From a virus (lineage: Duplodnaviria > Caudoviricetes), in IMG/VR virus record IMGVR_UViG_3300035497_000258, positions 46,347 through 110,346 of that record: a stretch of DNA of 64,000 nucleotides; one strand, 5' to 3'. A program made the translations under genes and the position numbers. Positions 1 to 50,528 of the stretch are shown piece by piece (positions within the stretch are counted from its first letter, which is position 1; each line of letters opens with the position of its first letter). The notes beneath the pieces are model-generated. The model made no database searches and was not told the DNA's origin. It saw nothing but the letters and a program-made list of their open reading frames with translations.

Positions 1-197
1 TCAACTAATTTTAGCTATAGCTCCTAAGCCGCTGTTGCAGCTTCTTCTATGTCTTTGGTAAAGGCGTCCCCAAATTTGGCTTTAGAAAAATCATAAGTAG
101 CAATCTTCTCTAAAGAGGTTTGTACTTCTTTTAATTTAGCATTTAGCTAAGCAGTATCTGCACTAAATGCAATTTCATAATTTAATCTTTTAGCCAT
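1..197 (-). CDS. N-terminus of a TAG-recoded protein, probably tail tape measure (runs off window start)
   Basis: ATG at 197 after AGGAG; MAKRLNYEIAFSADTA*LNAKLKEVQTSLEKI is helical; follows the tail tube and chaperone-like genes; in-frame TAGs. Confidence 0.55.
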
Positions 198-231
198 ATT
201 TTCTCCTTTCTCTCCTATATAAAAATAAAAA

Positions 232-262
232 GCCTTTGAGAACTTAATCTCAAAGGCTTTAA
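232..262 (-). terminator. Intrinsic terminator-like hairpin
   Basis: AAGCCTTTGAGA...TCTCAAAGGCTT stem with a T-rich tail on the minus strand. Confidence 0.55.
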
Positions 263-300
263 TTCTCTATTATTATTAAATTTTTTTTTGATATAATGAA

Positions 301-816
301 TTAATCACGACCAGCAATATCTTTAATTGCGGAAAGCTGCTCAAGGCCTTCACCATTCTTGATATTTTCTAAAATAGCCTTGATTTGCTCGCTCATAGAG
401 CCAGTGTCCTCGCTCAGATTACCCATCATTCCCGCAAAAGACTGGTTATAACGTGTAATATCACTAGCTGTAGTATACACGCAGTCCCGCAGAAATGCAA
501 GTTCTTCACCCGGGATACCAATATAAATCTTCTCGATGATATGATTACTAGCTAACTTATCATAAATATCATAAATCTTTAGACTATCATCGATCTCGAT
601 ATCAGTATACCACTTAGCAAGCGCCACGTCAAAGAAAGACTTTAGAACCACAGGACTAAAATTAAATGTATTCTCATCCATAGAGTTTTGAATAACATAG
701 TTAATAAATTCAATCTTACTTTGCAGCGGCACATATCTCTTAATTTCAAAATCACCATAATCCGAGGTCATAGGATTGGTATTATTAGTTACAGGAAGGT
801 CAGAAAGCTTAATCAT
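301..816 (-). CDS. Hypothetical protein, possible tail assembly chaperone
   Basis: 171-aa ORF with AGGAG RBS, directly upstream of the putative tape measure gene. Confidence 0.6.
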   Translation of the reverse strand: MIKLSDLPVTNNTNPMTSDYGDFEIKRYVPLQSKIEFINYVIQNSMDENTFNFSPVVLKSFFDVALAKWYTDIEIDDSLKIYDIYDKLASNHIIEKIYIGIPGEELAFLRDCVYTTASDITRYNQSFAGMMGNLSEDTGSMSEQIKAILENIKNGEGLEQLSAIKDIAGRD

Positions 817-865
817 TTTACATTCTCCTTTTTCTCTTTTGTTTTATTATAACAAATTTTTATAG

Positions 866-2257
866 TTAATTCAAAAAAATATTTATACCATCAGATTTTT
901 TTACAAATTTTTCTAGGTTGTCAATATTTAGTTTTCCATATGATTTAATTGCGTATATAGCTGCTTTAACTTCTCTAATTCTTTTTAGCTTGGCATAATT
1001 ATTATTATCATACCCACCATACCATTTATTCTATACACGCTCTATAACTATAGTAAATCCATCTCTATTACCATACTCTCGTTTTCCGGCACTTTGAACT
1101 TGATTAATCTATTCTACTATAGCACTAATGATGCCTAGCATAGAATAAGCTTTAAAATCATGTATTAAAATTCGCTATACTTCTTGCTAGTTTGTACCAA
1201 CTATATATTTTTCTGCCATTTCATTAATTAAATCTCCACGGATAATTCTATAGTTCTAATCTAATGTAGCATTTGCTCCAGACCCAAAAGCTAAAGTATT
1301 ATAAATCTAATAGTCTACTAAAGCACCATTTCCGTAGAGTGAGTGTAACAATGGCATGACTTGAGAATACTAGCCTGAATATGACACCATCTTTGTAGGA
1401 CCGCTATTACGATAAGCTTTAACAGAAGCATAATTCTATACGTTCATATCTGTCATAAATTCAAGTGTTTTATCATTTAATTTACTATAAGCAGAATAAT
1501 TAAAACCTTCTCCACCAAAAGTAATATCAGCAGCCTTAGAAAATGTATTACCATCATCTACTTGGCTGCCACTTGTGCCAGTTAGTCCTTTTGTTGTAGC
1601 GACAAAATTTCCTATCTAATTTAATGCCATACCCTAAGCAGAACTTGCTACAACTAGAGCTAAAGCCTCAGAAGTAGGAGTTAAAGCATTAGATAGCCAA
1701 CCTACATCATAGCTATCTTTACCCTTTTTCATAGAAGATTTAATTAATGCTAAAAAGTTCTTTAATCTTAGGACCTATTGTACGCTACTTTCTTGAATTT
1801 CATTAGGATTTTCAATCATGCCTAATAAAACAGAAGCAGAACTCTCATTAGCCTAAAATACACTTAATAAATCATTTAAAGCTTCCGCTGCAGCCTGGGT
1901 ATCTGTCCCTTTCAAGGCATCCTCAAGAGAACCTACAGCCGAGTTATAATTACCTATTAAACTACTAGCCTACTCTGCTGCTTCATTATATTTTTTAACT
2001 ACAGCTACTTCTATGGCTTTTTCCATGCGCTCAAACTTCGCCAAATCCATAGCTTGAATATATTCCTATTTAGTGGTTCCTGCGTTCTAACTAGCTAGCT
2101 ACGCCCGCAAAGCCTGAAGATATCTAGTTTTTATTTTCTTAAAAGAACTACCTGCGGACTGGCCGTATGCACGTAGCGTACCACCTTGGTAATTTTCTGC
2201 ATGACCGTGAATATTAATTACTTTTTCCTCGCCATACTAAAATACATATTTAGCCAT
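866..2257 (-). CDS. Hypothetical virion-region protein (~463 aa, many in-frame TAG)
   Basis: ATG 2257 after GGAGG; 1392 nt in frame with TAA at 866; missing from the ORF track because of TAGs. Confidence 0.65.
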
Positions 2258-2277
2258 AATTTCCTCCAAAAACGAAG

Positions 2278-2302
2278 AAAAGGGAGGGTATAAACCCTCC
2301 CT
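2278..2302 (-). terminator. Intrinsic terminator after the tail tube gene
   Basis: AGGGAGGG-loop-CCCTCCCT hairpin followed by a T-run on the minus strand. Confidence 0.7.
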
Positions 2303-2388
2303 TAATTAATCATCTTCATATTCGTCAACATTATCTTGACTATTGATTTCTTCTTCTTTTTGCTCGTCAGAAATCATAGACCGAGCGT

Positions 2389-3608
2389 TTAACCCCCCGA
2401 TGTCTCGGAGTCCGCAGGCTTTTCAACAATGCCCTTCTCGCAATCACGTATTAAATCAACATCAAGTTCATCTTCATCAATCACCTGAATCAGAGCCAAA
2501 ACTTTATTATCGCTAAATTTCGTATAAGCGGGGAAAGCATCAACCACAAAGTTAAAAGTAGAAGGATCACCGCTAGAAGCCATACTAAATGTAAAGTTAG
2601 ACTGGACTTTACCATTAGGAATAATAAACTCAGCAGGCATATCTCTACCATCGCTCTCGCGTCTAAACAAGGTATCGCCTTCAATGTAGAAGTTGCCAGA
2701 GAAACTATCAGCAGTAATTTCCATCTACAGCGCACCACTCTTTTTTGCAACATAATAATCAACTAAAATAATCTTATTAGCTTTAATCTTAGAACAAGTA
2801 ATTGTAGTATTACCATTACTATAAGTTACTGCTGTAGGTACACAAGGTTCATCAGTAATATAACCATTATCATCAAGAACCATAATATACATATCCGCAT
2901 TTTCATTATAATTATCACCAGCAGTTAAATTATTACAAGCGGTAATATGTTCAAGAGTAATAGTACCATCAACACTTGCTTTAATTTGAGAAGTAGAATG
3001 AACATAAACGGGAGCCTCATCTTTAGCAGAAATTAGTCTTGCACCAGATAAAATGGAAAATCCTTCAGGAGTTAGTAAAGCATCTTCCATATTAAAAGTA
3101 AGAGTTTTCTCGCCGTCCCAAGCAATTAAGCGCGTGTTACCTCGACCCATTATTATTCCAATAAGCTCGCTACAGCTTATTGCGTTCTCTTATGAACTGC
3201 TATATCTTTATATATACATATAGATTAGACTATATCTTTTTCTCTTATAGAGAAATCTTCCATTTCGACCGCCAATCACTTGCGGCCTACGTCTTTCGAC
3301 TAGTCGTTGAACCTTACTTGAATTCTATATCTTTAGTAAGATATTCAAGCCTTGGCTGCTGATTGCCTAGTGAGGATTTTTACTAGGTTTTCCAGCAATT
3401 AGAAAGATTTGCTAATTCTTATCACTAAGAATAGGGGCAATCATTTACCCTGGGCATAAACTGTGGTAACAGCACCTTCTAAGCTAGAAGTTTTTAAAGA
3501 ATCAAAATAAATAACAGGCTCATTCTTTAAGAATTCTCTTGAACCAAGTCTCATTCTGCTACGCGCACGGAAAACAACATTGCAAATCTCGCGCGATCCA
3601 AACCGCAT
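2389..3608 (-). CDS. Major tail (tube) protein; exons 3608-3447 and 3147-2389; one in-frame TAG at 2727-2725
   Basis: Splicing gives ...TTVYAQG|GRGNTRLIAWDGEKTLTF...; ...KKSGAL*MEITADSFSGNFY... is continuous in frame; position in the morphogenesis operon. Confidence 0.75.
3148..3446 (-). ncRNA. Group I intron, ORF-less, 299 nt, in the tail tube gene
   Basis: 5' exon ends in U (CAGGGU) and can pair with intron GCCCC; intron ends in G; core strings AATTGCTGGAAA, AATCAGCAGCCAAG, GTTCAACGACTA, AAGATATAGTCT; removal restores the frame. Confidence 0.88.
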
Positions 3609-3622
3609 AATTAATTTCCTCC

Positions 3623-4360
3623 TTAATGAATATTTTTCATCCAATTTTCTACTTGTTCTTCAGGTTTGCCACCCGCAAGTCGTGACTTCAAATCTACGTC
3701 CCAGCTTACTTGTAGCATATATCTATCAACCAGATCAAACAACTAAAAAACCGTTAAATTTAAACAATCCTATAGTGTCATAGAATTTAATCCTACTACC
3801 AAAATAGAAATGTATCTCGTTAAAACACTGCCCTAATCAGCAGATTTTATTTGTGCTATTTTGCGGCGAGAAGCTTCTAATTTATCAGCTATCTTCTTAG
3901 CTGCCGCATTAGCCGGATTATATACTATATCGTTATCTCCCTTAAATATCTACTTTGTACAAGAAACCTAATTTAATACATTCTAAAAAACTGAAAAGTT
4001 TGATTCATCTATTATGCTAGATTCTTTTTCTTTATTCATTAAAATAATGCTATTTGGAGTGACTAAAGTTTTACGATCCGGAAACAATAGCTACAAAGCA
4101 GTCAGAATAATTTGCTTTTTATCTTTAAACTCTGGCTGCATTAGTATTTTCATTAATACCTAAAAATTCGTAACAGTCTCTAAAAGAGACTCGTCCTAAA
4201 TGAACTAACGTTTCTCTAAACATAAATACTATATAGCCTAAAAATAATCCTCCTCACCCATGAAGGCTATATCCTATAGAGTGGGAGGATGTAGTGTAAG
4301 CTATAATTCTGGAATAGGAATGTCAATTCCAGCCATTAAAGATAAAGTTAAATCTTTCAT
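3623..4360 (-). CDS. Hypothetical tail-region protein (~245 aa, TAG-rich)
   Basis: ATG 4360 overlaps the upstream TGA; MKDLTLSLMAGIDIPIPEL*LTLHPPTL*DIAFMGEE...ENWMKNIH-TAA; 738 nt. Confidence 0.75.
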
Positions 4361-4893
4361 TCAAGAGGATTAACTTCATCTTCATGTCCTCTAACTGCTA
4401 AATATCTTAATGTGATTCCGCCAAATTCATCATCATAAACATCCTAATCAGCACCCATAAAATTTAATACTCCAATACCGGTTAAATGCTAACTATCTAA
4501 CATAGAATCAATTTCACCAGCTATTCGGTACGGCCGCAGTTCATAATCTCCTAAATCCCAATTAGCGAAATGACATATAATCTTAATTTCAACTACATGG
4601 TCTCGGTAGTAAGGATTTGAGGCATTAGGGGTAAAACTATCATAAGTAATACGTATATAATTCAATTTATCTGAATTTACTACTATCTTAGGAATATTAG
4701 AAATATTTTTCTACTCAAATAATGATTTAATTTGTTCAGAAGTAAGATTTGGTTTTTTCTGCCAATCTTTTACATTATAATAAAGCAATTTAAGAACATC
4801 TTGATTACCGAGTATTTTATCCATGATAAGAGAAGTGTCCTTCGACATTCCTAAAAAACTGGACTTAGGATACTCGTAAAAATTCCTTTTCAT
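4357..4893 (-). CDS. Putative tail terminator/neck protein (178 aa, TAG-recoded)
   Basis: Track ORF 4711-4893 continues through TAGs (...ELRPYRIAGEIDSML...) to TGA at 4357. Confidence 0.7.
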
Positions 4894-4914
4894 TTCTCCT
4901 GTTTCTCCTATCTA

Positions 4915-5886
4915 TTAAAACAAAGATTCAACTACGATTACTTTCTCTCGTAATATATCATCTTTGGACCATTGTAAAGTAAACTATCCACTTACAGACT
5001 TTAACCAAGTTAAAGAAATAGTTTTATCATCAACTGGTATAATTTCTACTGGAGCTTTTTCTTTAACACACCAAACACCACCTTCATCCGAGCTATATTG
5101 TTCTGCGATTTTGGGTTTGATGAATGTTAAACCTTCAATTCCACTATTAGGCATAGAATCAACAGGTTCAATAATAAGACCATTCTTCATTTCATTTGTT
5201 TTATCATCTGTATCTCTATCTATATAGTACTCTTCTGCGTTAATTTCAATTATATTTTTCATACTAATTGAATCAACCGCTTGTACCTACCAACATTTTC
5301 CAGCAAACAGAAATTCAGAATAACGGTCAAAAGCCTAGATAGTTTTATCATTCTACGGGAGTAAAATATTCAAACTCCAGTTAGGTCTATCAACTCGTAT
5401 TTGATTCTTCTGGATAGATTCAATCTACGTTTCAACAGGACCTCTTATAGCTGCCCAAGTAGAATACCAGTTACCAGAAGCATCTTTAAATTTTAATTTA
5501 TATTTGCATTGTCTAATTTCCCCTCTGAAATAAGCATCCTCAGTCAACTACTAAAGATAAATAATCCAGAAGGTCTAAGTACCAACCCAACAAAATACAT
5601 CACCGAGTTGATAATTATATTTATAATCAATAGAGAGAATCTTATCATCATAATCTTGTTTAACTTTATCAGGATTAATCAAAGCTCTATAGACTTCGTT
5701 AATTTGCATATCCTAATCAAGAGAAGAATCATCTTCGCTTAAGCACTCGCTATAAGGTTGTACTAAAGTGACATCACAACCTTGATAAGAATATAACAAA
5801 CTCTTTAGAAAAGTATTATACTTATCTTGAATCATGCGGGCTTCCTGCTAAATGCCGCCTTGATACTCGAGGCGTTTCCGCATCAT
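4915..5886 (-). CDS. Putative head-closure/neck protein (~323 aa, TAG-recoded)
   Basis: Open frame from ATG 5886 (or GTG 5904) to TAA 4915 when TAG is sense; includes track ORF 4984-5262. Confidence 0.7.
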
Positions 5887-5893
5887 ATCATAA

Positions 5894-6205
5894 TTAGTAG
5901 TCACTACTTTTCACCGCCTTCGCCATAATATCTATACAGCGAAAAACTGTTTTGCGATAAATCATGAAATCATCGCAAATCTCGCTTTTTAATCCCTCTA
6001 GCTTAGATAGCAAAATCAAAAAATCTAGCTCACTAGAAAATACTTCCTGGAGTCCCGCAATTTCTTCAATAATAGTATTGAGATGATTCTCCCAATTTTC
6101 ACTATTTTCTCGCATTGGAATTAGCTTCCAAATCTAATTAATAAGCCTGCGGGAATCGACAGAAACGGTACTGTCATTAATCTCAAAGTTATACTTAGTT
6201 ATCAT
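5894..6205 (-). CDS. Hypothetical virion-region protein (103 aa, 1 TAG)
   Basis: MITKYNFEINDSTVSVDSRRLIN*IWKLIPMRENSENW extends track ORF 5894-6115. Confidence 0.7.
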
Positions 6206-6698
6206 CTAAAGCACTCGTTTCTATTAAAGTAGACCAATTAGACTTTACTGATCCATTAGAATCAATATATTTGCGACGTTTGTATAAACGCTGCATATGT
6301 CTATCTTGTCGTTCAGCCTCTTGTTTAAGTTTCATAAGCTTGTCCAGATGATTCGCCTAGCTCGTCATCTTATAGTCCGCTCCCGAGTATTTCATCCGCA
6401 CGTTTTCTATAGATGCTATCTATCTTTGTAACCAGGTATTATACATAAGATGAGCGAGGATATTAACTTCCTCGCTCGTTAAATGACAATTAAATTCTAA
6501 ATTCTCTGTATTGTAATCATATAATGGGAATCGAGGAAATTCAAAGCCAGGAATGGCGTCAAGTAGAATATTAAGAAGATCCTTCTCAGTATCTTCTTTA
6601 GTCCAAATGAAATACATATCATCTGTTATTTTACCAAAGAACCGGTCATAAATTTCCTAGAAAGAGGTATTGGTTCCAGTAATTGGATATTCTGCCAT
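6195..6698 (-). CDS. Putative head-tail adaptor (167 aa, TAG-recoded)
   Basis: GAGGTG RBS and ATG 6698; frame open through TAGs to TAA 6195; located just after the capsid genes. Confidence 0.7.
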
Positions 6699-6712
6699 TT
6701 TTTGGCACCTCC

Positions 6713-7264
6713 TCATTCTCCGTCTTTAGGAATCACCAAAGCTTCCTTTTTAGCATAACTAGGCGTAGCGACACGTCTCTTAGAAGTTTCGACTTCTTCA
6801 ACCTTATCTTCTTTTGATGCCTCATTCAAAGCAATAGCAGAAGTAACATTAAATCCAAGAAAATCTAAAACTGCCTGCCGTTTATTCACATCATTCAAAG
6901 GAACTGAAACTGAATACTTCTTAATTAAATCTTTAACTCCAACAGGAGCGAACTGTAAAGCATCCTTAAACTCATCTAAAGAACATTCATTAATCCAGGT
7001 AGGAATAATATCTTCGGTAAGCCAATATTCAGGCTCTTCTGTCAGATTAAGCCCTTCATGGATAGCTTCCTTGTTCTGAATCAAAAGGAAGTTATACAGC
7101 AGTTCTCTTCCGCCAGGTTGTGCGGCGACCGCAGTTATCTCACCGTATTCGACCTACTTGGTCTCCTTCGGATAGAATTCTCTGCGGATTCCCCGTTCAG
7201 GAATGATATAAACCACTGAACCTTCGCTACGATTAGTTATCTTAATCATATCTGTACTCTTCAT
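6713..7264 (-). CDS. Hypothetical protein after the capsid gene (183 aa, 1 TAG)
   Basis: AGGAG RBS and ATG 7264; MKSTDMIKITNRSEGSVVY...KETK*VEYGE joins track ORF 6713-7084. Confidence 0.75.
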
Positions 7265-7284
7265 TTTTTATCTCCTTTTACTCA

Positions 7285-7320
7285 GCGGTTAGGAGGGGAT
7301 TAACCCCTCCTACCTTTTTA
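7285..7320. terminator. Hairpin after the major capsid gene
   Basis: TAGGAGGGG...CCCCTCCTA inverted repeat. Confidence 0.55.
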
Positions 7321-7323
7321 TAA

Positions 7324-8355
7324 TCAAGCTCCGATAGTATCCAGCTTACCAGCCAGAGTAGTATCCACGTAGGAGCAAATATTGTTAGTCAGCATCACAC
7401 CAACGCCCACCTTACGATAGACCTGGATATCACGAGACCAATCCTCATTCTCGCGCTCGCGCACATTGGTATTACCCTCAAAGGCAATCTTCACGGGCTT
7501 CATATTAGCGCCAGCGGGAATAACCCAAGCATAACCGGGGTCAATAACTTTACGGCTGTTGGTTTCATCCTCATAAGACTGGGGCAGAACGATAACCTGA
7601 CAACCCTTATAATTGCCCAGATAACCCTGATTCCAACGGGTATCACGCATATTATCAGAAACCCAGCCGGTCTCAGGCACCATCTTCACTGCAAATTCAT
7701 AAGTGCAGTAAATAGTAGGCTGACCATAGGCAGAAGCAACCTGAATCAGACGGTCCATAGAAGCCTCATCAAAACGGTTGGTAGAAACTTTATTAGCTGC
7801 AGGGAGCTGGTTAATAGAACTCATAAGAGCACGGGCAATCTCACGATAGATTAAATCATCCATGCCTTCCATGATAATATTTGTGACTTCTGCGAAATCG
7901 GCACGACCATCGAGAAATTCCTCAAAACCAATTTGAGCAGCGCCGCCAATAGCATTGGTCTGCACTTCAAAGCTCTCCCCGCCCAGCTTAAAGACTTCAT
8001 ACACGCCAGCCAGACCAACATGGGTCACGAACTGCTTAGCACGCATATGGCCCATACGGCGAGTAAACACAGGACGATCGCCCTGAGCAAAAGTCTTAGT
8101 CTCAGCGAACTGACCATAACGCTCAAGAACACGAGTAGGAAGAATATCATTCATAGTCTCCTCAATCAGAGAGAAAATAGTATTCTTATTCTCACGGTAC
8201 AGAGCATTAGTACCAGCGAGCTCATTCAGCTCATTCCGCAAAGTCTCATTTAGTGCCCCGTAGGTCATAGAAACACCATTCACGCTATAAGTGCCGGAGG
8301 GATTAGCCTTCGCCACAGTTTTCATTAAAGATAAAAGGTCATTATACTGTAACAT
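7324..8355 (-). CDS. Major capsid protein
   Basis: 343 aa; follows protease/scaffold and decoration genes; biased codon use typical of high expression; no in-frame TAG. Confidence 0.8.
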   Translation of the reverse strand: MLQYNDLLSLMKTVAKANPSGTYSVNGVSMTYGALNETLRNELNELAGTNALYRENKNTIFSLIEETMNDILPTRVLERYGQFAETKTFAQGDRPVFTRRMGHMRAKQFVTHVGLAGVYEVFKLGGESFEVQTNAIGGAAQIGFEEFLDGRADFAEVTNIIMEGMDDLIYREIARALMSSINQLPAANKVSTNRFDEASMDRLIQVASAYGQPTIYCTYEFAVKMVPETGWVSDNMRDTRWNQGYLGNYKGCQVIVLPQSYEDETNSRKVIDPGYAWVIPAGANMKPVKIAFEGNTNVRERENEDWSRDIQVYRKVGVGVMLTNNICSYVDTTLAGKLDTIGA

Positions 8356-8372
8356 TATCTATCTCTCCTTTC

Positions 8373-9023
8373 TCAAGCAATGCGCTGAAGCTTAACGGCG
8401 GGCTGGTTATCAGCCAGAGTATAAACCTTAACAACCTGGAAGGTAGGACCTTCCTCGTCACCAGACTTACAAAGGAAGCCATCAGAACCGACAGTCAGCT
8501 TATCACCTTTATCCAGAGAAGCCTCATTCACGCCATTGGTAGTAAAAATATCACCCACATTGGTCTTAATAACACGGGGGAACATCTTCTGACCATCGTC
8601 AAGATACTGAGGATAATCATAAGCAGGAATCTGAATAGTAGCACCTTCATCAGAATTCTCTCTGACAGCCTCCTCACTGTGGTCAAGCACGGTCAGAAGA
8701 TCAGAGCTACTCTAACCAACAGGGCTATAAACACGAGCATTGTAATTCTGCTTAATCATAGCAAAATCCTCGTACTGCTGACGATCCTCATAAAGCTTAA
8801 CCTCATTAAAGACCATCATCCACTCGCCATCACCAGTGAAATTAACCTCGCCATTAGCATAATCATACTTCACAAACTGGCCATTCTCTAAAATATTAAT
8901 ATCAGCGGCAGCAGGTAACTGGGCATAGATTTGACCAGTGCGCTGTGCAGACAGGTGGTTAGGCTCAACTTGAGAATAACCACGCTTAACAAAGCTAGCG
9001 CCGCTTAAACGTGTAATTGCCAT
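8373..9023 (-). CDS. Putative head decoration protein (216 aa, 1 TAG)
   Basis: Track ORFs 8712-9023 and 8373-8690 share a frame and are joined by VYSPVG*SSSDLLTVLDHSE. Confidence 0.75.
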
Positions 9024-9043
9024 TATTACATTTCCTCCTTATT

Positions 9044-10354
9044 TTAATTCATTTTTGATTCAGTATCTTTAACAGCCTGAATCCAAGCAGGGATAACAGA
9101 ATCCTGCTCAACTTCTGATAAACTAAATGTCACACCAGGCTTTTCCTCTTCTTCTTGAGAGAAATTAACTCTATTGCGTACGCAAGCAATAGATAGTTTA
9201 GCCTCAATGTCATCTAAAGAATAATTATCAATATTAGCTTGAACATCTGCTTTATCTTCATCAGAAAGCATATAGAAGCTATTAATCATATTCTGCTTAT
9301 CTTCATGCTCTTTAGCAAGTTTAAACTCCTTGAGAGGAGAAATCTCAGCTTGAAGTGCGGAAACGGTAGCTTCGAGCTGCGCGTATTCTGAAGTTAAAGC
9401 GTCGAACTTTTCCTTCAGCTCCGCATACTCAGTAACTTCGTCAAGATTATACTTCTTTTCGTCCTTACATTCATGCTTAGTTTCATTCTTCTTCTCTTTC
9501 TCATCCTCCGCAGGTTCAGACTTAGGGTCCTCTTCCTTCTCTTCGGGCTCAGAGTTCTTCTTATCTTCAGGCTTCTTATCATCTTCGGCCTTAGCATAAG
9601 AATCTGTATCAATCGTATTGACTAAAGACTCACTCGACTCAACAACATTAATAGCTGCTGTTGTATTAATTTGTTCCATCTTGTATTCTGTACCTCCTTT
9701 ACTTAAAGCTTCTTGTAATTCTTGTACCATCGAGTACATTTCAGCTTTAAAATCTTGTAGAGAAAATTCAGATTTAATCTACGCACCTTCGAAACAAGGT
9801 TCGACATTCTCTCCAAGAATACATAGTTTTTCAATCAATGCTTCACTATAAATAAAAAATCTACTACCTAAATTTATATTTTCTGCCCAAGTTCCTTTTT
9901 GAGTTTTACTATTAATTTCCATAGACTGATTATTACCTTGCTCTATAATTCGCTTAGAGTCAGGATAAGCCTCAGTCCATAAATAGCCTTCTGTCACTAG
10001 ATATTCTCTTTCAATACCTTCATCAGAAAATTTCTGAAACCAAACTTGAGCATTAGTAGGAACAAATCCATAGGGACGTGTAACATCAATGATAGACCAC
10101 TTACCGTCCTTGATCTCCACTTCCCGCTCATGGGCTTCAAAATCCTTAGTATCTTGATTATAATAACCAACGATCGGACTTCCCGGCAGATTTCTTCCCA
10201 TTTCAGTAGCAACTTCTTTTGTTATAACTGTATGGTTCCTATTAGGTTGTTGACCAACATAACAGACTTTAATCTAACAATGACTAATTAAAGGACTAAT
10301 CTTTGTCATTTCAATAAATTCCATTGTTGAATCAACAGGAATACTAATATGCAA
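9044..10354 (-). CDS. Prohead protease/scaffold fusion (436 aa, TAG-recoded)
   Basis: TTG 10354 after GGAGG; N-terminal domain ...QSME...LCILGENVEPCFEGA*IKSEF... then an acidic coiled-coil tail; lies between portal and capsid. Confidence 0.75.
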
Positions 10355-10373
10355 CGTCAATCCCTCCTTTCAA

Positions 10374-11960: not shown

Positions 11961-11972
11961 TATCTCACCTCC

Positions 11973-12333
11973 TTAATATCCAGCTTTTTTGAATATATAA
12001 TCGTAGTTTACTCGTTCTTCTTCCCAATAAGGAATTTCAATTAGTTTTATATTATGTTCAGCGCAATAAAGGCGTTTCTTTTCATCATTATACTTTTGTT
12101 GATATAAACCTTTAGTGCCGCCAAATTTACTAACTGCTTGATAATGTTGTTTACCTTGATATTCAATTAGAAAATCAATACGTCCATCATCATCGAAAAT
12201 GGCGAAGTCAAAGCTATCGAAGAGGATTACCATTAGTACTCAATAAATCAGGAAATTCATATTCTTCTTGAAAGTTAATTTCATTAGCTTCTAAAATACG
12301 ATAGATTCTAATTTCACCTCTGCTAGCCCTCAA
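11973..12333 (-). CDS. PD-(D/E)XK-type endonuclease-like protein with an internal +1 frame break near 12210
   Basis: MRASRGEIRIYRILEANEINFQEEYEFPDL..NPLR in frame 0, then FDFAIFDDDGRIDFLIEYQGKQHY in the +1 frame. Confidence 0.6.
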
Positions 12334-13236: not shown

Positions 13237-13323
13237 AAGGATTTATACCTCTATTTTCTTATAAAGTTCTCTTTATTAGTTATAAAAAATCAACTAATTG
13301 TATTAAATAAATCTGTCCTAGTC

Positions 13324-17232: not shown

Positions 17233-17234
17233 TG

Positions 17235-19603: not shown

Positions 19604-19650
19604 GCTCAAAGGAAAGAGCAAAACAATTTACTTTGAAAGGATTGAACGAC

Positions 19651-29805: not shown

Positions 29806-29835
29806 CACCCGCTCCCGCACGGAGAAAGGAATACC

Positions 29836-30590: not shown

Positions 30591-30609
30591 TAGAAAGGAT
30601 TGATAGCAA

Positions 30610-42887: not shown

Positions 42888-43127
42888 ATGAGTTATTTCA
42901 GTTATGAAGTTAAGGTTTATTCTACGGAAGCTTGCACAACACTTGAATCTTATCAAGGTATCGTAACTGCTGAGGATTACCATAAAGCTATGGATCAAGT
43001 GATGGATTTTTATGGGGCTGAATATCTTAGTAGTATTCGTCTTGAGGACTGGGAAACTGAAGGTACGGTTCTTGAGCTTACTGAACAGGCAATTCGTGAC
43101 TTGAGAGGAGACGAAGCAAATGGATAA
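42888..43127 (+). CDS. Hypothetical protein
   Basis: TTGAAA...TATAAT promoter and GAGG RBS. Confidence 0.6.
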   Translation: MSYFSYEVKVYSTEACTTLESYQGIVTAEDYHKAMDQVMDFYGAEYLSSIRLEDWETEGTVLELTEQAIRDLRGDEANG

Positions 43128-43554
43128 GAATGTGCGGAAACTGCGGCTTGAAAACCGCATTAACCTGCTGCAAAATAAGGGTGACTTTAATCAGCGAATT
43201 GTGAATAAGTTGAAGCGGGAACTGAGAAAATTCTAGGAACTAAAGTTTACTAGTATTGAACTAGTAGATGGAAGCGGAAATGTAGCGATAAAAATTCTTT
43301 GATATAAAATAAAAAATATTATATAATATCTATAGAAAGTTGAGGGAAGGCAATGTTTGAAATGATTCATTTCACTGGCAACGACCATGAAATTCATCGA
43401 GTGTATAATACCTACGATGAAGCGATTGATGAATATAATAGAATGAGGCTCCATGGACTTATCTATGAGAATGTCGTTATTGTCGATCTCTCGACCGGAG
43501 AAGTCGCTTATGACCATTTAGATGGTTGACTGCTAGGAAAGACTAGCTCGATAA

Positions 43555-43640
43555 GGCGGTGTGATGGAACAGGTAGACATAACGGTCTTAAAAACCGTTG
43601 GTTTTATACCGTGAGGGTTCAAATCCCTTCACCGCCACCA
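43555..43640 (+). tRNA. tRNA-Leu(TAA)
   Basis: GGCGGTG/CACCGCC acceptor; ACGGT-CT-TAA-AA-ACCGT; long variable arm; encoded CCA. Confidence 0.9.
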
Positions 43641-43644
43641 TTAT

Positions 43645-43714
43645 GCAGGATTGGCGTAAGATAGCGTATTTGCTCAAAAGGCAAAGAATAGAGGTTCAAA
43701 TCCTCTATCCTGCA
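43645..43714 (+). tRNA. Atypical tRNA-like gene (anticodon loop TCAAAAG, no CCA)
   Basis: GCAGGAT/ATCCTGC acceptor and AGAGG-TTCAAAT-CCTCT T arm; weak D arm; C at position 33. Confidence 0.55.
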
Positions 43715-43720
43715 CGATAT

Positions 43721-43794
43721 GCGGATGTAGTTCAACGATAGAACGCTAGCCTTCCAAGCTAGATATGAGGGTTTGATTCCCTTCGTTCGCTCCA
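43721..43794 (+). tRNA. tRNA-Gly(TCC)
   Basis: GCGGATG acceptor; CTAGC-CT-TCC-AA-GCTAG; TCCA end. Confidence 0.9.
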
Positions 43795-44051
43795 TGGTAG
43801 TCTTTAATCTACCTAATTTTAGTTCTTTACTGATATAAACTCCTTTTTAGTATAGAGGTTTAAGCCGAGGGTTTCTCTATAATATAAACTTCGGCATCTT
43901 TTGAAATTTAATAAAAAATATTATATAATATTTATAGAAATTAAGGAGAGCGTACTAAGGAGGAAGCAAAATGTTTGACGATTTTGATACTCAGATTCAG
44001 AGTGATGAGATGGCATGGAAATATGAGCTTCTTGAGGAGTTAGCTACAGAT

Positions 44052-44129
44052 GTTCCGGTAGTCCAATCGGCAGGAGACAAATGATTTAGGTTCATTTCAG
44101 TGAGAGTTCGAGTCTCTCTCGGAACACCA
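44052..44129 (+). tRNA. tRNA-Leu(TAG) with a short variable arm
   Basis: GTTCCGG/TCGGAAC; AATGA-TT-TAG-GT-TCATT; ACCA end. Confidence 0.8.
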
Positions 44130-44388
44130 GCGATCGCTGCACGTCGCTTAATTATTAGATGCAGTAAAGATACGAGTATGGTATCCGGCGCTTCGATAGT
44201 CGTTAAAGGTGAGATAAAACTGAATCGAAAAGCGTTACATTGGTTTAATACTTAAGCTACCACCGGCTTTAGGAGATACGTGGCATTGTGAGAACGCTAT
44301 ATAAGAAGTAAAGTAAAGTATATTCAGGTTTAAGAGTACCTTGGGTTTTAGAAACTTGTGAAGCCTAAAACATTGAACTCTTTTATAT

Positions 44389-44462
44389 AGCCGATTGGTG
44401 TAGTGATAGCATCCGAGAATTTGACTCTCGTGGTGGAGGTTTGATCCCTTCATCGGCTGCCA
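44389..44462 (+). tRNA. tRNA-Gln(TTG)
   Basis: AGCCGAT/ATCGGCT; CGAGA-AT-TTG-AC-TCTCG; GCCA end. Confidence 0.85.
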
Positions 44463-44465
44463 TAA

Positions 44466-44569
44466 AGACGCTTACAGCAACTTTTTAAAACAAGTAATTT
44501 GATTAATGTACTTTCAAAAAGTAGTGCCTTTCTTTGCGGAGATTGGATAACAAAATTTAAAGCGTCTAG
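44466..44569 (+). ncRNA. ACAGCAA hairpin motif, copy 1 (copies 2 and 3 at 45197-45256 and 45501-45541)
   Basis: AGACGCTT-ACAGCAA...AAGCGTCT-AG; each copy starts 3-4 nt after a tRNA CCA; closing stems covary between copies. Confidence 0.6.
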
Positions 44570-44597
44570 TTTTTATTTAAAAAGGAGCAAGAGAAAA

Positions 44598-44825
44598 ATG
44601 ATTCATTTTAGTAATTGTGGAACTTGTAACTCTGCTTTTAATTTTAATGCGGTTTCTGCGGATGCGGCTGCGCGAGAGCTAGCTATGCATCCCGAGTGGG
44701 CTAGAGATGAAGTGGCGCAGGACCGGGTTTGCCGCAAGTATGGCATTTTCTTAGATCAGATTACAGATGATGAAGCATCTTACATTTCTTCTCTTGTTAT
44801 TGAATACGCGAGGGCAATGCGATGA
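44598..44825 (+). CDS. Hypothetical protein inside the tRNA cluster
   Basis: AAGGAG RBS before ATG 44598. Confidence 0.55.
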   Translation: MIHFSNCGTCNSAFNFNAVSADAAARELAMHPEWARDEVAQDRVCRKYGIFLDQITDDEASYISSLVIEYARAMR

Positions 44826-44968
44826 AATTTAAAGATTTAGAAAGAGGTATGTTTCGCTGGAAAGGCTTAGTTTATACTAAGTTTTGTAGAACGGCAGCGG
44901 CTGTTATTACTTCTGGTAAAGTAGTTAGATTTGAAGCAGAAGAAGAGATAGAAGAAATGTGAAAATAT

Positions 44969-45044
44969 TCTAGTGTAGCTTAGTAGGTTAAAGCCTCCGA
45001 CTTATAATCGGAAAACTAGGGTTCAAATCCCTACACTAGGACCA
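44969..45044 (+). tRNA. tRNA-Ile(TAT)
   Basis: TCCGA-CT-TAT-AA-TCGGA; GGTTCAAATCC; ACCA end. Confidence 0.85.
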
Positions 45045-45116
45045 AGCGCTTAGCGCTACATATACCTTGCCTCCAAGTGTTTTTAGTCCTAAGTATGACT
45101 TAAAACTGCTTGATAC

Positions 45117-45193
45117 GCGTCAGTGGCCAAGTTGGTAAGGCTCCAAACTTTTAATTTGGAAATGCGTGAGTTCAAGTCTCACCTGACGCACCA
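45117..45193 (+). tRNA. tRNA-Lys(TTT)
   Basis: GCGTCAG/CTGACGC; CCAAA-CT-TTT-AA-TTTGG; ACCA end. Confidence 0.88.
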
Positions 45194-45407
45194 TTTTAGA
45201 CACTCACAGCAACCATTCTAAAGATTTAATGTTATAAAATTTTTGCCTGTGTCTAGTTATTTTAAATTTAGAAAGGAGAATATGAATGTACGATATTGAT
45301 GATTTTATTTTTGGAAATGAGACTCCCACTATCAGCAATAGATGAATATGATGTATAATGCGGCCGATGATGGTGGTTCCAAGCCCACGCAAACGCAGAG
45401 GATACAT

Positions 45408-45497
45408 AGAGGATTACCCAAGTTAGGTTATAAGGGGTCAGTTCGCTAAACTGATAGGGCTACGGCCGCAAGAGTTCGAATCTCTTATCCTCTGCCA
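45408..45497 (+). tRNA. tRNA-Ser(GCT)
   Basis: AGAGGAT/ATCCTCT; TCAGT-TC-GCT-AA-ACTGA; long variable arm; GCCA end. Confidence 0.85.
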
Positions 45498-45668
45498 TAG
45501 TAGATACCAACAGCAAACTTTCTGGTGATTGTAGTATCTAGTTTTAAGGCTTCCTTCTTACGAGGGAAGCCTTTCTTTTATGCTCAAAACCCTGGACAAA
45601 AATATATAATTCATAGTTTTAATTTTTTAGAATACTATGAGATAGTATTGAAAAGGGGAGACTTGCAT

Positions 45669-45971
45669 ATGATTACAGCTAGTACAAATAATATTCGCAA
45701 GACTTTCTATAATATGGCTGAGTTCTTATGCGATTATCAAAGTGATGTAGCTGATTTGCCTACTGATTGTGGAGTTGGTTCTAAAGCTTTTGTGATTGAA
45801 AACTCTAATGTTTATATTTTAAATGGTTCAAAAATATGGATTTTGTAGAGTACGACTGGAAATGAAAGTTCATCTTCAGGCGAAAATAATTCTTATGATG
45901 GCGGAGATTTAGATGATAACTTTTCTTCTTCAGGTGAAAACAATCTCTATGATGGTGGCGACTTAGACTAA
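45669..45971 (+). CDS. Small virion-associated protein (100 aa, 1 TAG)
   Basis: EFLCDYQSDVADLPTDCGVGSKAFVIE...KIWIL*STTG, then two SSSGENN-x-YDGGDLD repeats to TAA. Confidence 0.65.
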
Positions 45972-45994
45972 AATTATAGAGGAGTGGAAAAGGT

Positions 45995-46339
45995 TTGGCT
46001 GAAACAACAATAATTAAATTTAAGCGTGGTTCTGCAAATACATGGATTCGATTAAATCCAATACTTGAATCTGGCGAGCCTGGATATGAAAAAGATACAG
46101 GCAAACTTAAAATTGGAGATGGCACTACTGCTTGGAATGATTTAAAATACTTCGAGGGAGAAGCATCCATTTCTATTGATAATAAAAGTTTGACTTTATA
46201 CGGCGATGCCATAGAATTATACGGTTTTAGTGCAGCGACCGCCGGTCAAATCCCTTCTAAAGGGAGCGACGGAAATCTTGAATGGGTTGACAAGAATATT
46301 CCTTTAACTGAAAAGGAAATTCTTTCAATATTAAATTAA
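45995..46339 (+). CDS. Tail-fibre adaptor-like protein (Mtd-N/hyaluronidase N-terminal type domain)
   Basis: KFKRGSANTW...NPILESGEPGYEKDTGKLKIGDGTTAWNDLKY. Confidence 0.75.
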   Translation: MAETTIIKFKRGSANTWIRLNPILESGEPGYEKDTGKLKIGDGTTAWNDLKYFEGEASISIDNKSLTLYGDAIELYGFSAATAGQIPSKGSDGNLEWVDKNIPLTEKEILSILN

Positions 46340-46355
46340 AAGGGGAGGTTATCAA

Positions 46356-47108
46356 ATGGTAAAAGTTCTTGACCAAGCTGGTTTAGTTACATTATGGGCG
46401 CAAATTAAGGGCTATAATGCAGACGCTATTTCTGAAGCTTTAACTAACTATAAAACTAGCTCTGAATTAGTTGAAATCTTAAGTGATTATGTCACAGAAG
46501 ATAAACTTCAAGAAGCTATTGCAGAAGTTACTACAGACGTAACTAGAGTATTTACTTATAAGGGTAGTATTGATAATTATTCTGAATTACCTGCTGATGC
46601 AGCTATTGGAGACGTTTATAATGTCATAAATGCAGACGCAGATAATGGTATTAATCCTGGTGATAATGTTGTTTGGACTGGAGATTCTTGGGATAAACTT
46701 GCTGGCTCTATTGATCTGAGTAATTATGCTACTAAGTCTGATCTTGATAATAAAACTACTTAGAGCATTAAAGACGTGAATGGCGAGTCGCTTGTTTGGA
46801 ATGAAACTTCTGGCGGTGGCGCTAAATTTATTCATACTGATGGTACTGAATCTTTCGTTGGAGTAAATGATGGTGGCGCCAATGGCATGGTTGCTCAAAT
46901 TTATGCTGATAAAGAGGTTAATGGCGACTGGATCGGTTCACGTTTAAACGTGTATCAAAAAGGTATGTTCTATCACAATGCAGAAGATAAAGCTTCTGGT
47001 AATTATGTTGCTGATGATCCTGAGCATGAAGTAGCAGTTAAGAAAGATATCGAGGCTGTTATTCCTGAAGCCTTAACCGAGGATGAAATTAAAACTATTT
47101 GCGTATAA
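46356..47108 (+). CDS. Tail fibre-like protein (250 aa, 1 TAG)
   Basis: YKGSIDNYSELP...GDVYNV...WDKLAGSIDLSNY; DNKTT*SIKDVNGE joins two track ORFs. Confidence 0.7.
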
Positions 47109-47126
47109 GGGAAGGAGGACAATTAA

Positions 47127-47489
47127 GTGTCTAAATTCCTAGACCAATCAGGCGTAAGTATACTATGGACTCTTATGAAAGATAAGGGTTCAAAAAGAGA
47201 TAATTATTTTAATTATGAAGATACCTATGTCCCTGATAATGGACAAATTTGTTTTGTAGATACCGCTAAAGATGGTCTACAAATAAAAATCGGTGATGGT
47301 ATTACTCCATGGATCTAGCTTTCATACCTCTAGGCATCTGAGGATTCCGCGGGTATTATGAAACTTTATCAAAGTTTAGGAACTAATACAGATGGAGCGA
47401 TAAGTTAGAAAGTTATTACCGATGAATTAGAGAATAAATTTAGCGTAGAAGTGAATAACTCTCAAGAGCTTATTCGTTTTTATAAATAA
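47127..47489 (+). CDS. Tail fibre-associated protein (120 aa, 3 TAG)
   Basis: KIGDGITPWI*LSYL*ASEDSAGIMKLYQSLGTNTDGAIS*KVITDEL. Confidence 0.7.
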
Positions 47490-47511
47490 AAAATAAGGAG
47501 ATTTTTAATTT

Positions 47512-48711
47512 ATGTCAATTTTTGAATATACTGCTGGCTCTGTGCTAAGCCAAATTGAGCTAGGCGGCGTTACTTATTTATTAAAAGACGCTGATGCACG
47601 TAGTATTTTAGACACTCTGGGTAATGCTTCTTTAAAGGATGTTTCTACTAGCGGTGTTGCTGAAGGCGAGAATGGTCTTGTCACAGGTGCTCAAGTTCAG
47701 TCTGCTATTGCTGGTTTAACAGGTGTTCTGCATTTTAAAGGCAAGCTTGATGAGTTGCCCACTGATGTTTCTACATATGAGAGTGGCGATGTCATCATTG
47801 TTGGTACTAAAGAGTATCTTTTTTATGATGGTGCATTTACTGAACTTGGTGATGAAGGCGCATATGTCCCTAAGACCCGTAAGATCGCTAATATCGCTCT
47901 CGACGCTGACATCAGCGTAGCTTCTTTACAATCTGCGCTTGGCTTAAAGGCTCTTGCTTATAAGGATTCAGCTTCTGGCACTGTTGAAGTTACTACTGGT
48001 ATCAATGGCGCTTCTTATACTCCTGCTGGTACTGTTTCCACCACTCTTTCTACTGAATCTAGTACTGTGAGTTCTTCTGGTAAATTTACTCCTGAAGGTT
48101 CGGTATCTGGTAGCGTGACTCCTTCTGGTAAAGTGACACTCTCTGTTGATAATACTAATGGCGTTACTCTTGGTGGCACTGTATCAGCTCCTACAATTAC
48201 TGTGACTCCTTCTACTACTACCGTAAAGCATATTTCTTCTGTGGGTACTCTTCCTTCTTATACAGCGGCTTCTTATACCGCTCCTAGCGTATCTGAATCT
48301 ACTAGTAATTTTGCTACTTCTGGCGTGACTGCTACTGTGAGTGGTGAAACTCTGACTTTAGGTACTGCTTCTACTAGTGCCGCTGTGACTTCTACTGGCT
48401 TTAAAGCTGGTTCTTTCACTGATGGTACATTTTCTGCTGGTACTCTACCTTCTCTTGATAGCGGCATTACTGTGGTTACTGGTATTGAATCAGCTACTGC
48501 TACCGCTCCTACCTTTACCGGTAATAAATATTCTGCCACTTTCGCAGGGAATACTAATACAATTTCTGCTACATTTAGTGGTTCTGAAGGTGACGTCAGT
48601 GTAAGTGGTAGTTATACTAAAGCTACTGATGTTTCTAGTACATTTAAGGGTACAGCAGATACTATTACTCCCACTCTGACAAAGAGTACAAAGACTGTTA
48701 CTGTTTCCTAA
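47512..48711 (+). CDS. Ser/Thr/Gly-rich fibre-like structural protein
   Basis: 399 aa; repeated TPxGTVS / PTFTG motifs. Confidence 0.7.
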   Translation: MSIFEYTAGSVLSQIELGGVTYLLKDADARSILDTLGNASLKDVSTSGVAEGENGLVTGAQVQSAIAGLTGVLHFKGKLDELPTDVSTYESGDVIIVGTKEYLFYDGAFTELGDEGAYVPKTRKIANIALDADISVASLQSALGLKALAYKDSASGTVEVTTGINGASYTPAGTVSTTLSTESSTVSSSGKFTPEGSVSGSVTPSGKVTLSVDNTNGVTLGGTVSAPTITVTPSTTTVKHISSVGTLPSYTAASYTAPSVSESTSNFATSGVTATVSGETLTLGTASTSAAVTSTGFKAGSFTDGTFSAGTLPSLDSGITVVTGIESATATAPTFTGNKYSATFAGNTNTISATFSGSEGDVSVSGSYTKATDVSSTFKGTADTITPTLTKSTKTVTVS

Positions 48712-48733
48712 TTAAAAGGACGGTGTGAAGTAA

Positions 48734-49918
48734 GTGGCAGATTTAGCTAATATTAAAGTAGGCAGCACCACTTACACTCTAAAAGATACTGCTGCGAGGG
48801 ATCGTCTTGACATTATTGAGACGACCCTCGCATCAGGACTTATCTTTAAGGGTACAGTCTCAAGTGCTGCCGATATTACAGGATTAACGGATTATAAAGT
48901 TGGTTGGACTTACAAAGCCTCTGCCTCTTTTAGTATAACAAATATAGGAAGTATAGAATCAGGAGACATGATTATTTGTGTTTCTGCGTATAGTTCTTCC
49001 TATAAAGCAACAGACTGGACTGTGGTTTAGAATAATGTTGATACATTTACTGGCGCAAGTGCGAGCACGGCAGGTACAAGGGGTTTAGTGCCCTAGCCTT
49101 CCGCAGGTAGCCAATCTAAGTTCTTACGTGGAGACGCGACTTGGGCTTCTATAGACTCAGTACCTAAATTAACCACTGCCCGCACAATAACTGTGGACGG
49201 CGATGAGTCGGGCTCTGCTTCTTTTGATGGTTCTTCTAATGTTACTATCAATCTAACTGATAATCGCTTTGTAATGGGCACTCAGACAGCTTCTACCGCA
49301 GATTGGACTGGTAATTTACATGGTGTCAAAGCATTATATGATGGACTTTGTATTAATTATTGGCTTCCTTATGCTTCTGTGAGTAGTACTAATGTTACTT
49401 TAAATTTAACTCTCGACGATGGTACTACTACAGGCGCTATTGATTGTTATAGATGGGCAACTTCAAGATTAACTACGCATTATGGGGCCAATTATCTTGT
49501 TACATTAACCTATCGTTCTGGAGTAAATATTAATGGAACTACTTATACTGGTTGGTGGGCTACTGGTGATGCAAATTCTACTTACTCTAATGCTTCACTG
49601 GGATAGGGATATGTAACGTGCTCAACAGCGGCAGCTACTACTGCCAAAACAGCTTCTTTAAGTAGCTATTCTTTAACTACTGGAGGCATCGTTGCTGTTA
49701 AATTTACTTATGATGTACCTGCAAATGCTACTTTAAGCATTAATTCTAAAACCGCAAAAAGTATTTACTATAACGGAGCAGCTATTAAAGCTGGTGTAAT
49801 AAACGCTGGAGATATAGCTTACTTTATCTATAGTTCTCAATATCATTTATTGGGGAAAAATACCACTTTGGATGACGTAGCTTCTGCTTTAGATAGTGTT
49901 ACATGGTTTGATTTTTGA
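48734..49918 (+). CDS. Tail fibre protein (394 aa, 3 TAG)
   Basis: DWTVV*NNVD...AGTRGLVP*PSAGSQSKFLRGDATW...SNASLG*GYVTCSTAAATTAKT. Confidence 0.75.
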
Positions 49919-50136
49919 TATTAGGGGACTCGTTTATGAGTCCCCTTTTTTCTTTAGATTTAAGGATCTTTTTTACAAAAATCTTTGAAATTTCAAAAAA
50001 AATATCATATAATATTATTGTAGTTAAGGGAACGAAGCTACAACAAGGTTTACTTTTATGGGTGTTTGAAAAAGGGTTGGTTAACGAGGAACCCAAATCC
50101 TCCATCGAGCTGTGGAACGTAGCCTGGGCTCTTTAT

Positions 50137-50210
50137 GGTAGATTAGTTTAATGGTAAAACGAGATACTTGTAATATCTTGTTGCCTGTTCGATTCAGGCA
50201 TCTACCTCCA
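50137..50210 (+). tRNA. tRNA-Thr(TGT)
   Basis: GGTAGAT/ATCTACC; AGATA-CT-TGT-AA-TATCT; TCCA end. Confidence 0.85.
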
Positions 50211-50213
50211 AAC

Positions 50214-50299
50214 GGAGCGGTACTGAAGCGGTCATAACAGCCTAGTCTTGAAAACTAGCGTGTCTACGAGACACGGGGGTTCGAATCCCTCTCGCTCCG
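50214..50299 (+). tRNA. tRNA-Ser(TGA)
   Basis: GGAGCGG/TCGCTCC; CTAGT-CT-TGA-AA-ACTAG; long variable arm. Confidence 0.85.
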
Positions 50300-50453
50300 C
50301 GTCATCAAGATAAGAGCCTTCTCGTGGCGATGATGTTTTAACAAATCTTATCAATTATATAAATTAGATAGCAATAGAGAAAAGAATCGGAAAAATTAAA
50401 TGTAGAAAATAATGTAGAAAGAACCTAAAGACTAAATAAGCTATCTTACATAT

Positions 50454-50528
50454 GGAGGTGTAGTGTAATGGTAGCACAGAGGGCTCTAACCCCTCGGGTC
50501 TTGGTTCGATTCTGAAGCGCCTCTGCCA
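50454..50528 (+). tRNA. Amber-decoding tRNA (anticodon CTA), probably Gln-charged
   Basis: GGAGGTG/CGCCTCT acceptor; GAGGG-CT-CTA-AC-CCCTC; G discriminator and CCA. Confidence 0.85.

Follow-up and report, generated by a model that had tools for sequence, protein, structure and literature searches.

The 64,000-nt window analysed here (positions 46,347 to 110,346 of IMG/VR virus record IMGVR_UViG_3300035497_000258, Caudoviricetes) spans approximately half of the genome of a large (~136 kb), virulent-looking gut phage, a distant relative of phAss-1 and Enterococcus phage EF1, in which two genetic codes appear to operate side by side. Very probably, its late genes decode UAG as glutamine (Gln) through a phage-encoded tRNA with anticodon CUA, while its early and middle genes are kept in the standard code. 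The recoded late set would comprise the packaging, head, neck and tail-fibre genes, a homing endonuclease, a sigma-like regulator and two minus-strand genes. The assignment of TAG to Gln, first proposed in an earlier note made from the letters of this DNA, is strongly supported by homologue alignments, by codon swaps with a sister record (G002; 136,132 bases, collinear with the entire window at about 83–98% DNA identity) and by the CUA tRNA itself, which has a G73 discriminator and a weak 1:72 pair.

In-frame TAG codons number 115 in the window: 98 in the minus-strand block of packaging and head genes (301–18269; 21 open reading frame (ORF) segments without in-frame TAA or TGA), 8 in the tail-fibre cluster and 9 in the two minus-strand genes. 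Among the 5,292 codons of the late ORFs, 94 are in-frame TAG and none is TAA or TGA, the late-block count reaching 98 once exon 1 of the large terminase gene (TerL) is included. ORF cover, computed by block and strand from ORFs of at least 100 amino acids, rose on the minus strand of the late block from 0.306 under translation table 11 to 0.831 with TAG as sense, whereas treating TGA or TAA as sense gave 0.350 and 0.385, respectively; in the fibre cluster it rose from 0.679 to 0.965, and in the middle block (50560–64000) it went from 0.889 to 0.894. Cover computed over the whole window and both strands was rejected as a test (0.83 with TAA as sense, 0.81 with TAG as sense). Without reference to ORF calls, alignment of the window to G002 (56,459 aligned bases, 3,254 mismatches) marked, through the codon phase of the mismatches, late-block frames in which TAG is the only stop and middle-block frames with no stops, and the excess of third-position substitutions in the TAG-containing frames identifies these as coding. 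The bases immediately before and after TAG showed no marked bias relative to those flanking CAA and CAG.

Intron-split genes apart, conserved phage genes are broken only by TAG under table 11 and intact with TAG as sense. PHROG scans of ORFs translated with TAG as Gln matched a portal, virion structural proteins, a capsid-like protein, a GIY-YIG homing endonuclease and a sigma-like protein, and matches were full length only with TAG read through (for example, E = 5e-85 for the portal). The earlier note had held that the virion genes are broken only at TAG; this stands insofar as the late ORFs lack TAA and TGA, but TerL and the segment at 2389–3150 are also split by introns, and three late ORFs, among them the capsid-like gene (7324–8355), carry no TAG at all. 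The motifs that it had singled out were all located with TAG at the star: YIG*T at 13165–13179 (minus strand) in the GIY-YIG gene, FY*R at 15770–15781 (minus strand) in TerL, and DGAIS*K and SLG*GY at 47391–47411 and 49595–49612 (both plus strand) in the fibre genes.

The residue encoded by TAG was assessed by placing X at each TAG of 18 late proteins and searching these by tblastn against 45 related IMG/VR loci, two of which were near-identical and were left out, leaving 43 relatives. Across 89 TAG sites and 2,299 aligned cells, Gln accounted for 632 cells (27.5%, against a 3.8% background) and TAG itself for 110, and the profile of the TAG columns mirrored that of true Gln sites, at which Gln makes up 35.1%. 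Restriction to 10 representatives of the relatives without in-frame stops (that is, in the standard code) removes circularity; in this stricter set of 87 TAG sites and 610 cells, Gln occupied 180 cells (29.5%, against a 4.1% background), followed by Glu (12.5%) and Lys (9.8%), with Tyr at 1.6% and Trp absent, and of the 65 sites having at least 4 relatives, 25 had Gln as the most frequent residue. Comparison with G002 pointed the same way: 86 TAG codons were conserved in place, and 17 of the 23 differing codon pairs that involve TAG were exchanges between TAG and CAA or CAG, 15 of them in TAG-class genes, one in a doubtful ORF (19477–19938) and one in a non-coding read-through tail past 26888. 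The remaining differences were three involving GCA, TTT and GGG, two TGG-to-TAG changes at doubtful positions and one TAG-to-TAA change ending an early gene.

This usage stops at the border of the late-type genes. The 17 small early-type ORFs (22145–30801, plus strand; 1,931 codons) and 37 middle ORFs besides the fibre cluster (35514–63943, plus strand; 6,534 codons, ending in 19 TAA and 18 TGA) contain no in-frame TAG in 8,465 codons, compared with the 115 of the late-type genes, and all of their 214 Gln codons are CAA or CAG, compared with approximately 36% TAG among those of the late genes (Fisher P = 6e-40 for the late block versus early/middle genes). Early and middle genes together end in 30 TAA, 23 TGA and a single TAG, the last closing a 159-amino-acid early gene (26409–26888, plus strand) for which G002 has TAA. 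In that gene, 18 of the 20 mismatches to G002 lie on third positions; an indel follows seven bases after the stop, and periodicity then shifts to the frame of the next ORF (26902–27165). Because the coding signal of the early gene ends there, TAG seems to work as a stop in this genome.

The putative decoder lies at 50454–50528 (plus strand), where the earlier note had placed an intact tRNA with anticodon CTA and a G discriminator. Both ARAGORN, which found 11 tRNAs in the window, and the Rfam tRNA model (38.1 bits, cut-off 29) recovered it, with G73, a G1·U72 pair, an encoded CCA, an irregular T arm and a short variable loop. A G73 discriminator and a weak 1:72 pair form the identity pattern of bacterial tRNA-Gln, and by this rule the CUA tRNA resembles a tRNA-Gln, as do the CUA tRNAs of two relatives (G004 and G007), which likewise have G73 and a mismatched 1:72 pair. 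It is unchanged in G002 despite flanks that are ~85% identical. BLAST searches of the CUA tRNA against annotated phages gave weak partial matches only, to some tRNA-Gln genes, one tRNA-Leu and one tRNA-Pyl. The tRNA-Gln(UUG) also reported in the earlier note was called by ARAGORN at 44389–44462 (plus strand; A1-U72, G73). The CUA tRNA stands last in a plus-strand cassette (49923–50555) that begins with a terminator just past the last fibre gene (49923–49946) and continues with a promoter-like site (TTGAAA-17-TATAAT, 49985–50013), tRNA-Thr (50137–50210) and tRNA-Ser (50214–50300), ending in a second terminator (50534–50555).

Taken as a mechanism, this arrangement would most likely have the phage tRNA(CUA) as the decoder, charged by a host enzyme, since no Glu/GlnRS or release factor gene was found in G002 (no RF-1, PCRF or tRNA-synt_1c (Glu/GlnRS) domain there; release factor domains were also not found in G004, G007, G008, G009 or G012, several of these records being incomplete). 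The tRNA would carry Gln and outcompete the host release factor RF1, and its build-up would time late protein synthesis, an idea to which we give even chances. Gating of the late genes by the tRNA, as the earlier note suggested, fits the data, and we infer, with that note, that the host itself uses the standard code.

Several observations weigh against this account. The early class is drawn from gene size, strand and position only, and the case for TAG as a true stop comes from one early gene, or 1 of the 54 early and middle stops. The CUA tRNA has the lowest score of the 10 window tRNAs above the Rfam gathering threshold; its T stem is weak, with one C·A mismatch and two G·U pairs, and it has one extra base, drawn by ARAGORN as an eighth acceptor pair. 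The promoter-like site upstream fits the sigma-70-type consensus at 11 of 12 positions (a pattern match only); the other 11/12 matches within 43–51 kb occur only in the first tRNA array, each ~120–230 bases upstream of a tRNA-Leu gene. A near-consensus promoter of this type would suggest transcription of the tRNA by host polymerase, possibly from the start of infection, and the CUA tRNA may thus be made early, which would weaken timing by transcription; any timer would in that case lie in the accumulation of the tRNA and its contest with RF1, not in late transcription of the tRNA. Finally, 4 of the 7 TAG-recoded relatives (G006, G008, G009 and G010), with 38–57 in-frame TAGs near the portal, have no CUA tRNA among those detected by Rfam and ARAGORN in their tRNA regions (L064, L067, L068 and L069).

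Some of the same observations would suit a phage for which TAG is sense from the start of infection, in a host that lacks effective RF1 or itself reads TAG, with the split between gene classes left over from mutation history or expression level. Early and middle genes, too, almost avoid TAG as a stop (1 of 54); among late genes its share varies widely, down to none in the capsid-like gene, a pattern suggestive of a tie to expression level; and the tRNA lies behind a host-type promoter. We nonetheless consider such a history unlikely: none of the 214 early and middle Gln codons is TAG, against 36% in late genes, the coding signal of the early gene at 26409–26888 ends at its TAG, and the cultured relatives infect Bacillota that use the standard code. 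To our knowledge, no bacterium reads TAG as Gln.

That TAG stands for some other amino acid (Tyr, Trp, Glu, Lys, Leu, Ser or pyrrolysine) is less probable still, and we regard it as very unlikely. ARAGORN labels any CUA tRNA 'Pyl', G73 is compatible under general identity rules with Glu, Trp, Asp and Ser tRNAs, one relative (G012, below) appears to read TAG as Tyr, and Glu and Lys are the next commonest residues in the TAG columns. Against these stand the 7.2-fold enrichment of Gln over background in the 610 standard-code cells (Glu 1.5-fold, Lys 1.25-fold, Tyr 0.35-fold and Trp absent), a substitution profile that fits Gln best (log-likelihood −1381, compared with −1658 for Glu, the next best, 277 log units behind), the involvement of CAA or CAG in 17 of the 20 changes between TAG and sense codons relative to G002, and the short variable loop of the tRNA, which speaks against a tRNA of Tyr, Leu or Ser type. 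That the in-frame TAGs are damage in a decaying phage, or assembly or sequencing errors, can practically be dismissed, for although the late genes look fragmented under table 11, their frames are interrupted by TAG alone and are under purifying selection, an independent assembly has 86 of the TAGs at the same positions, and most of the 45 related contigs share the same TAG habit.

Within the late block, genes differ in the fraction of their Gln codons that is TAG (chi-square 54, df 20, P = 5e-5), from 0 of 13 in the capsid-like gene (7324–8355, minus strand; phrog_4088, E = 1.5e-66) and 2 of 21 at 9044–10360 to 17 of 29 in a 467-amino-acid virion-block protein without a family match (866–2269, minus strand; 17 TAG and 12 CAA/CAG) and 14 of 19 in a phrog_4051 protein (3623–4360, minus strand; 14 TAG and 5 CAA/CAG). 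The portal gene (10374–11960, minus strand) has 9 TAGs and is identified by phrog_2739 (E = 5e-85 over residues 63–525) and by tblastn to annotated portals. Neither the TerL pieces nor the portal nor the capsid-like protein had a Pfam match, so these identities rest on PHROGs and annotated homologues. The 8 TAGs of the tail-fibre cluster are spread over 6 ORFs (45525–49918, plus strand), one of which encodes an Mtd_N protein (45995–46339, plus strand), and the two minus-strand genes, whose function is unassigned, have 5 and 4 (33390–34085 and 34793–35215). Beyond the window, G002 continues with tail genes that are TAG-rich too (for example, a 2,379-codon ORF with 66 TAGs), and a few of its plus-strand genes there also contain TAGs.

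A gene opening the late block may bear on how the code switch is connected to transcription. The sigma-like gene (17235–18269, minus strand) has 5 TAGs, the first at codon 12, and its product has a C-terminal four-Cys motif; its 'sigma' label comes from phrog_5767 and from deposited Enterococcus phage annotations. Its first ~130 codons include no ATG, GTG or TTG; GAGGTG is followed by ATA (18264–18290, minus strand), several relatives have an Ile or Leu codon at this start, and the gene probably starts at that rare ATA. An AlphaFold model built from 15 sequences (mean pLDDT 72.5) had no Foldseek match in the PDB with E up to 0.001, and no Pfam sigma domain was found with E up to 1. With VIA-align, residues about 210–291 resembled sigma region 4, the top 8 rows all being sigma factors at Z scores of 7.5–6.7, which the tool itself grades as middling. 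One could imagine a relay in which the weak ATA start and the five TAGs leave the sigma-like protein makeable only after build-up of the cassette tRNA(CUA), suppression in this way licensing a late transcription factor that turns on the TAG-rich virion operon. We consider this relay doubtful; if true, it would place the code switch upstream of late transcription, beyond the tuning of late translation.

The late genes are also interrupted by introns, which the earlier note had missed in TerL. This gene (13324–15973, minus strand) has four exons (about 15710–15973, 14733–15440, 14086–14451 and 13324–13827) with 15 TAGs, its identity resting on tblastn matches of exon 2 to annotated large terminases and on a phrog_2 match of exons 2 and 3 fused in G002. 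With the RF00028 covariance model (cut-off 50 bits), three group I introns were found in TerL (15464–15788, 75.3 bits; 14495–14829, 87.4 bits; 13902–14129, 108.2 bits; all minus strand) and a fourth in a virion structural gene (3206–3456, minus strand, 94.8 bits; phrog_2729, segment 2389–3150). All four lie above the gathering threshold, and two are missing from G002, where the genes are uninterrupted: window bases 14449–14789 are lacking in TerL, and bases 3148–3447 in the structural gene, whose intron-less allele matches positions 3–240 of the 252-position phrog_2729 profile. From these comparisons, we read the late-gene introns as a mosaic of mobile introns. A third intron has a 928-base insert in G002. 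The GIY-YIG homing endonuclease gene (12334–13236, minus strand; PF01541, phrog_314; 7 TAGs) is absent from G002. Elsewhere, the radical SAM gene (50575–52230) contains a mini-intein (Hint region about 50638–51064, with Hint, Hom_end_hint and Intein_splicing matches), of which ~410 bases are missing from G002.

Membership of the window phage in the phAss-1/EF1-like group is indicated by homologues of the portal, of TerL and of the sigma-like gene (38.8% identity to EF1-type phages for the last). Portal tblastn reached 92 phage records, the best an unannotated faecal contig at 52.3% identity, with phAss-1 at 40.6% and EF1-type Enterococcus phages at 31.7%. The host is likely to be a gut member of the Bacillota. 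Cultured relatives infect Enterococcus, Bacillus and others. Of four related contigs, two lie in Bacillota/Clostridia metagenome-assembled genomes (MAGs), one in an unclassified 'Bacterium' isolate and one in a Bacteroidales MAG, the binning of phage contigs being weak evidence of host.

Along the window, the late block is followed by small plus-strand genes with their own ribosome-binding sites and hairpins (about 20.5–31 kb), by three minus-strand genes (31.9–35.2 kb) and by the middle genes, which include the radical SAM enzyme, an RNA ligase, phosphoesterases and a DUF2828 protein and enclose two tRNA arrays and the fibre cluster; lysis genes lie outside the window. A first impression that 18300–31200 is free of ORFs was rejected, the stretch being a run of small plus-strand genes that are 87–93% identical in G002; megablast of this stretch against the phage collection gave no match. 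For 8000–17900, a look-up of sequencing runs listed none and gave no RNA source. The region 18300–21700 lies between the divergent late and early blocks, with little coding periodicity at 18.3–19.5 kb, and short tandem motifs at 19139–19209 and 21026–21094 are akin to a word of the TTGTGCAC/TTGTACAA type found repeatedly ahead of early genes. Such elements may serve as operators or as promoters of the phage.

Codes are mixed among the 45 relatives. Within a family defined by the portal (42–98% identity) there are members in the standard code, members with TAG as Gln, members with TGA as Trp and one member with Tyr in its TAG columns. Six loci (L033–L036, L039 and L040) lack in-frame TAG but have 1–21 in-frame TGAs each. 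The three longest have 20–21 TGAs, which align with Trp of the window at 8–10 of the 20–21 sites, and some relatives probably read TGA as Trp. The member with Tyr columns (L041, from G012; portal 47% identical to that of the window) has 18 in-frame TAGs near the portal. Half of them (9 of 18) fall opposite a Tyr of the window and none opposite Gln or TAG of the window; among standard-code relatives, Tyr fills 82 of the 153 aligned cells. The variable arm of its 91-nt CUA tRNA (L071:8308–8398) is long, and this tRNA has A73 and C1 paired with G72; a search of G012 for a TyrRS (tRNA-synt_1b) domain found none. By these signs G012 seems to read TAG as Tyr. In the full-text literature on phages (subscription papers and supplements being outside the search), the only trace of TAG as Tyr was a 1.1% Tyr isotype tally (PMC10879173), and the word 'Tyr' does not occur in the preprint on code-15 gut phages (Borges et al., bioRxiv 10.1101/2021.08.26.457843). 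If confirmed, the portal family would offer a compact system for the ease of phage code change and the choice of residue, and this comparative by-product, mixed codes within one portal family, may outweigh the main finding in importance.

The code switch of the window is real but of a kind already described (Borges 2022, Babkin 2023). phAss-1 (OQ749652, proposed Phassvirus group) is described as a ~136-kb gut phage, akin to EF1, that carries tRNA-Sup(CTA) genes but no synthetase of its own; in it, as in some of its kin, TAG encodes Gln in the genes for TerL, the portal, the tail and the fibres, and Eubacteriales are suggested as hosts (Babkin et al. 2023, PMC10607447). The window phage differs in its portal, only 40.6% identical, and in having one CUA tRNA compared with three, and the sections of that report consulted here make no mention of group I introns in TerL, an intein, or relatives with TAG as Tyr or TGA as Trp. 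In code-15 gut phages (crAss-like, Lak, Agate, Garnet and others), recoded stops are described in structural and late genes with the standard code elsewhere, together with phage-encoded suppressor tRNAs, a model of late-gene timing and a recoded intron endonuclease that parallels the GIY-YIG gene of the window (Borges et al., bioRxiv 10.1101/2021.08.26.457843). Compared with these, the window represents a different lineage with likely Bacillota hosts, and no RF2 gene was found in G002. Peptide proof of recoding in crAss-like phages is reported by Peters et al. (2022, PMC9523058).

The window represents a clean, well-controlled case of two codes in one phage genome, in a lineage for which such recoding has so far been described in distant relatives only. 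In practical terms, annotation with table 11 destroys most of its virion genes. The Escherichia coli amber suppressors supE (tRNA-Gln CUA) and supF (tRNA-Tyr CUA) read UAG against RF1. The window tRNA resembles them in its CUA anticodon and in reading UAG in presumed competition with RF1, but it is phage-borne, and about 36% of late Gln codons would depend on it.

Other features of the tRNA arrays invite comparison with theta (HDV-like) ribozymes, which occur beside phage suppressor tRNAs in gut phage arrays; among 180 suppressor tRNAs, the Sup isotypes are reported to be Gln in 69.4%, Trp in 19.4%, Ile in 10.0% and Tyr in 1.1% (Kienbeck et al. 2024, PMC10879173). The setting is alike in that the window also has gut phage tRNA arrays with a tRNA-Sup; however, an encoded CCA and then a terminator hairpin come after its CUA tRNA, and no HDV-family Rfam match was found within 43000–51000 with E up to 1. 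Instead, a twister-P1-like candidate (45352–45406, plus strand), with the conserved core letters present and the optional hairpin absent, ends one base before tRNA-Ser(GCU) at 45408; its score is below the RF03160 gathering threshold (50.9 versus 67.2 bits, E = 2.6e-9 over 8 kb). In G002, the tRNA-Gln(UUG) locus (73994–74829) has an ~835-base insert, which may be an intron or a homing-endonuclease insertion, and ARAGORN called an 89-nt tRNA-Gln there. An odd tRNA in G008 was given the four-base anticodon 'taaa' by ARAGORN. The tRNA-Phe at 43645–43715 (plus strand), also present in G002, has the anticodon AAA, which is uncommon in bacteria and phages.

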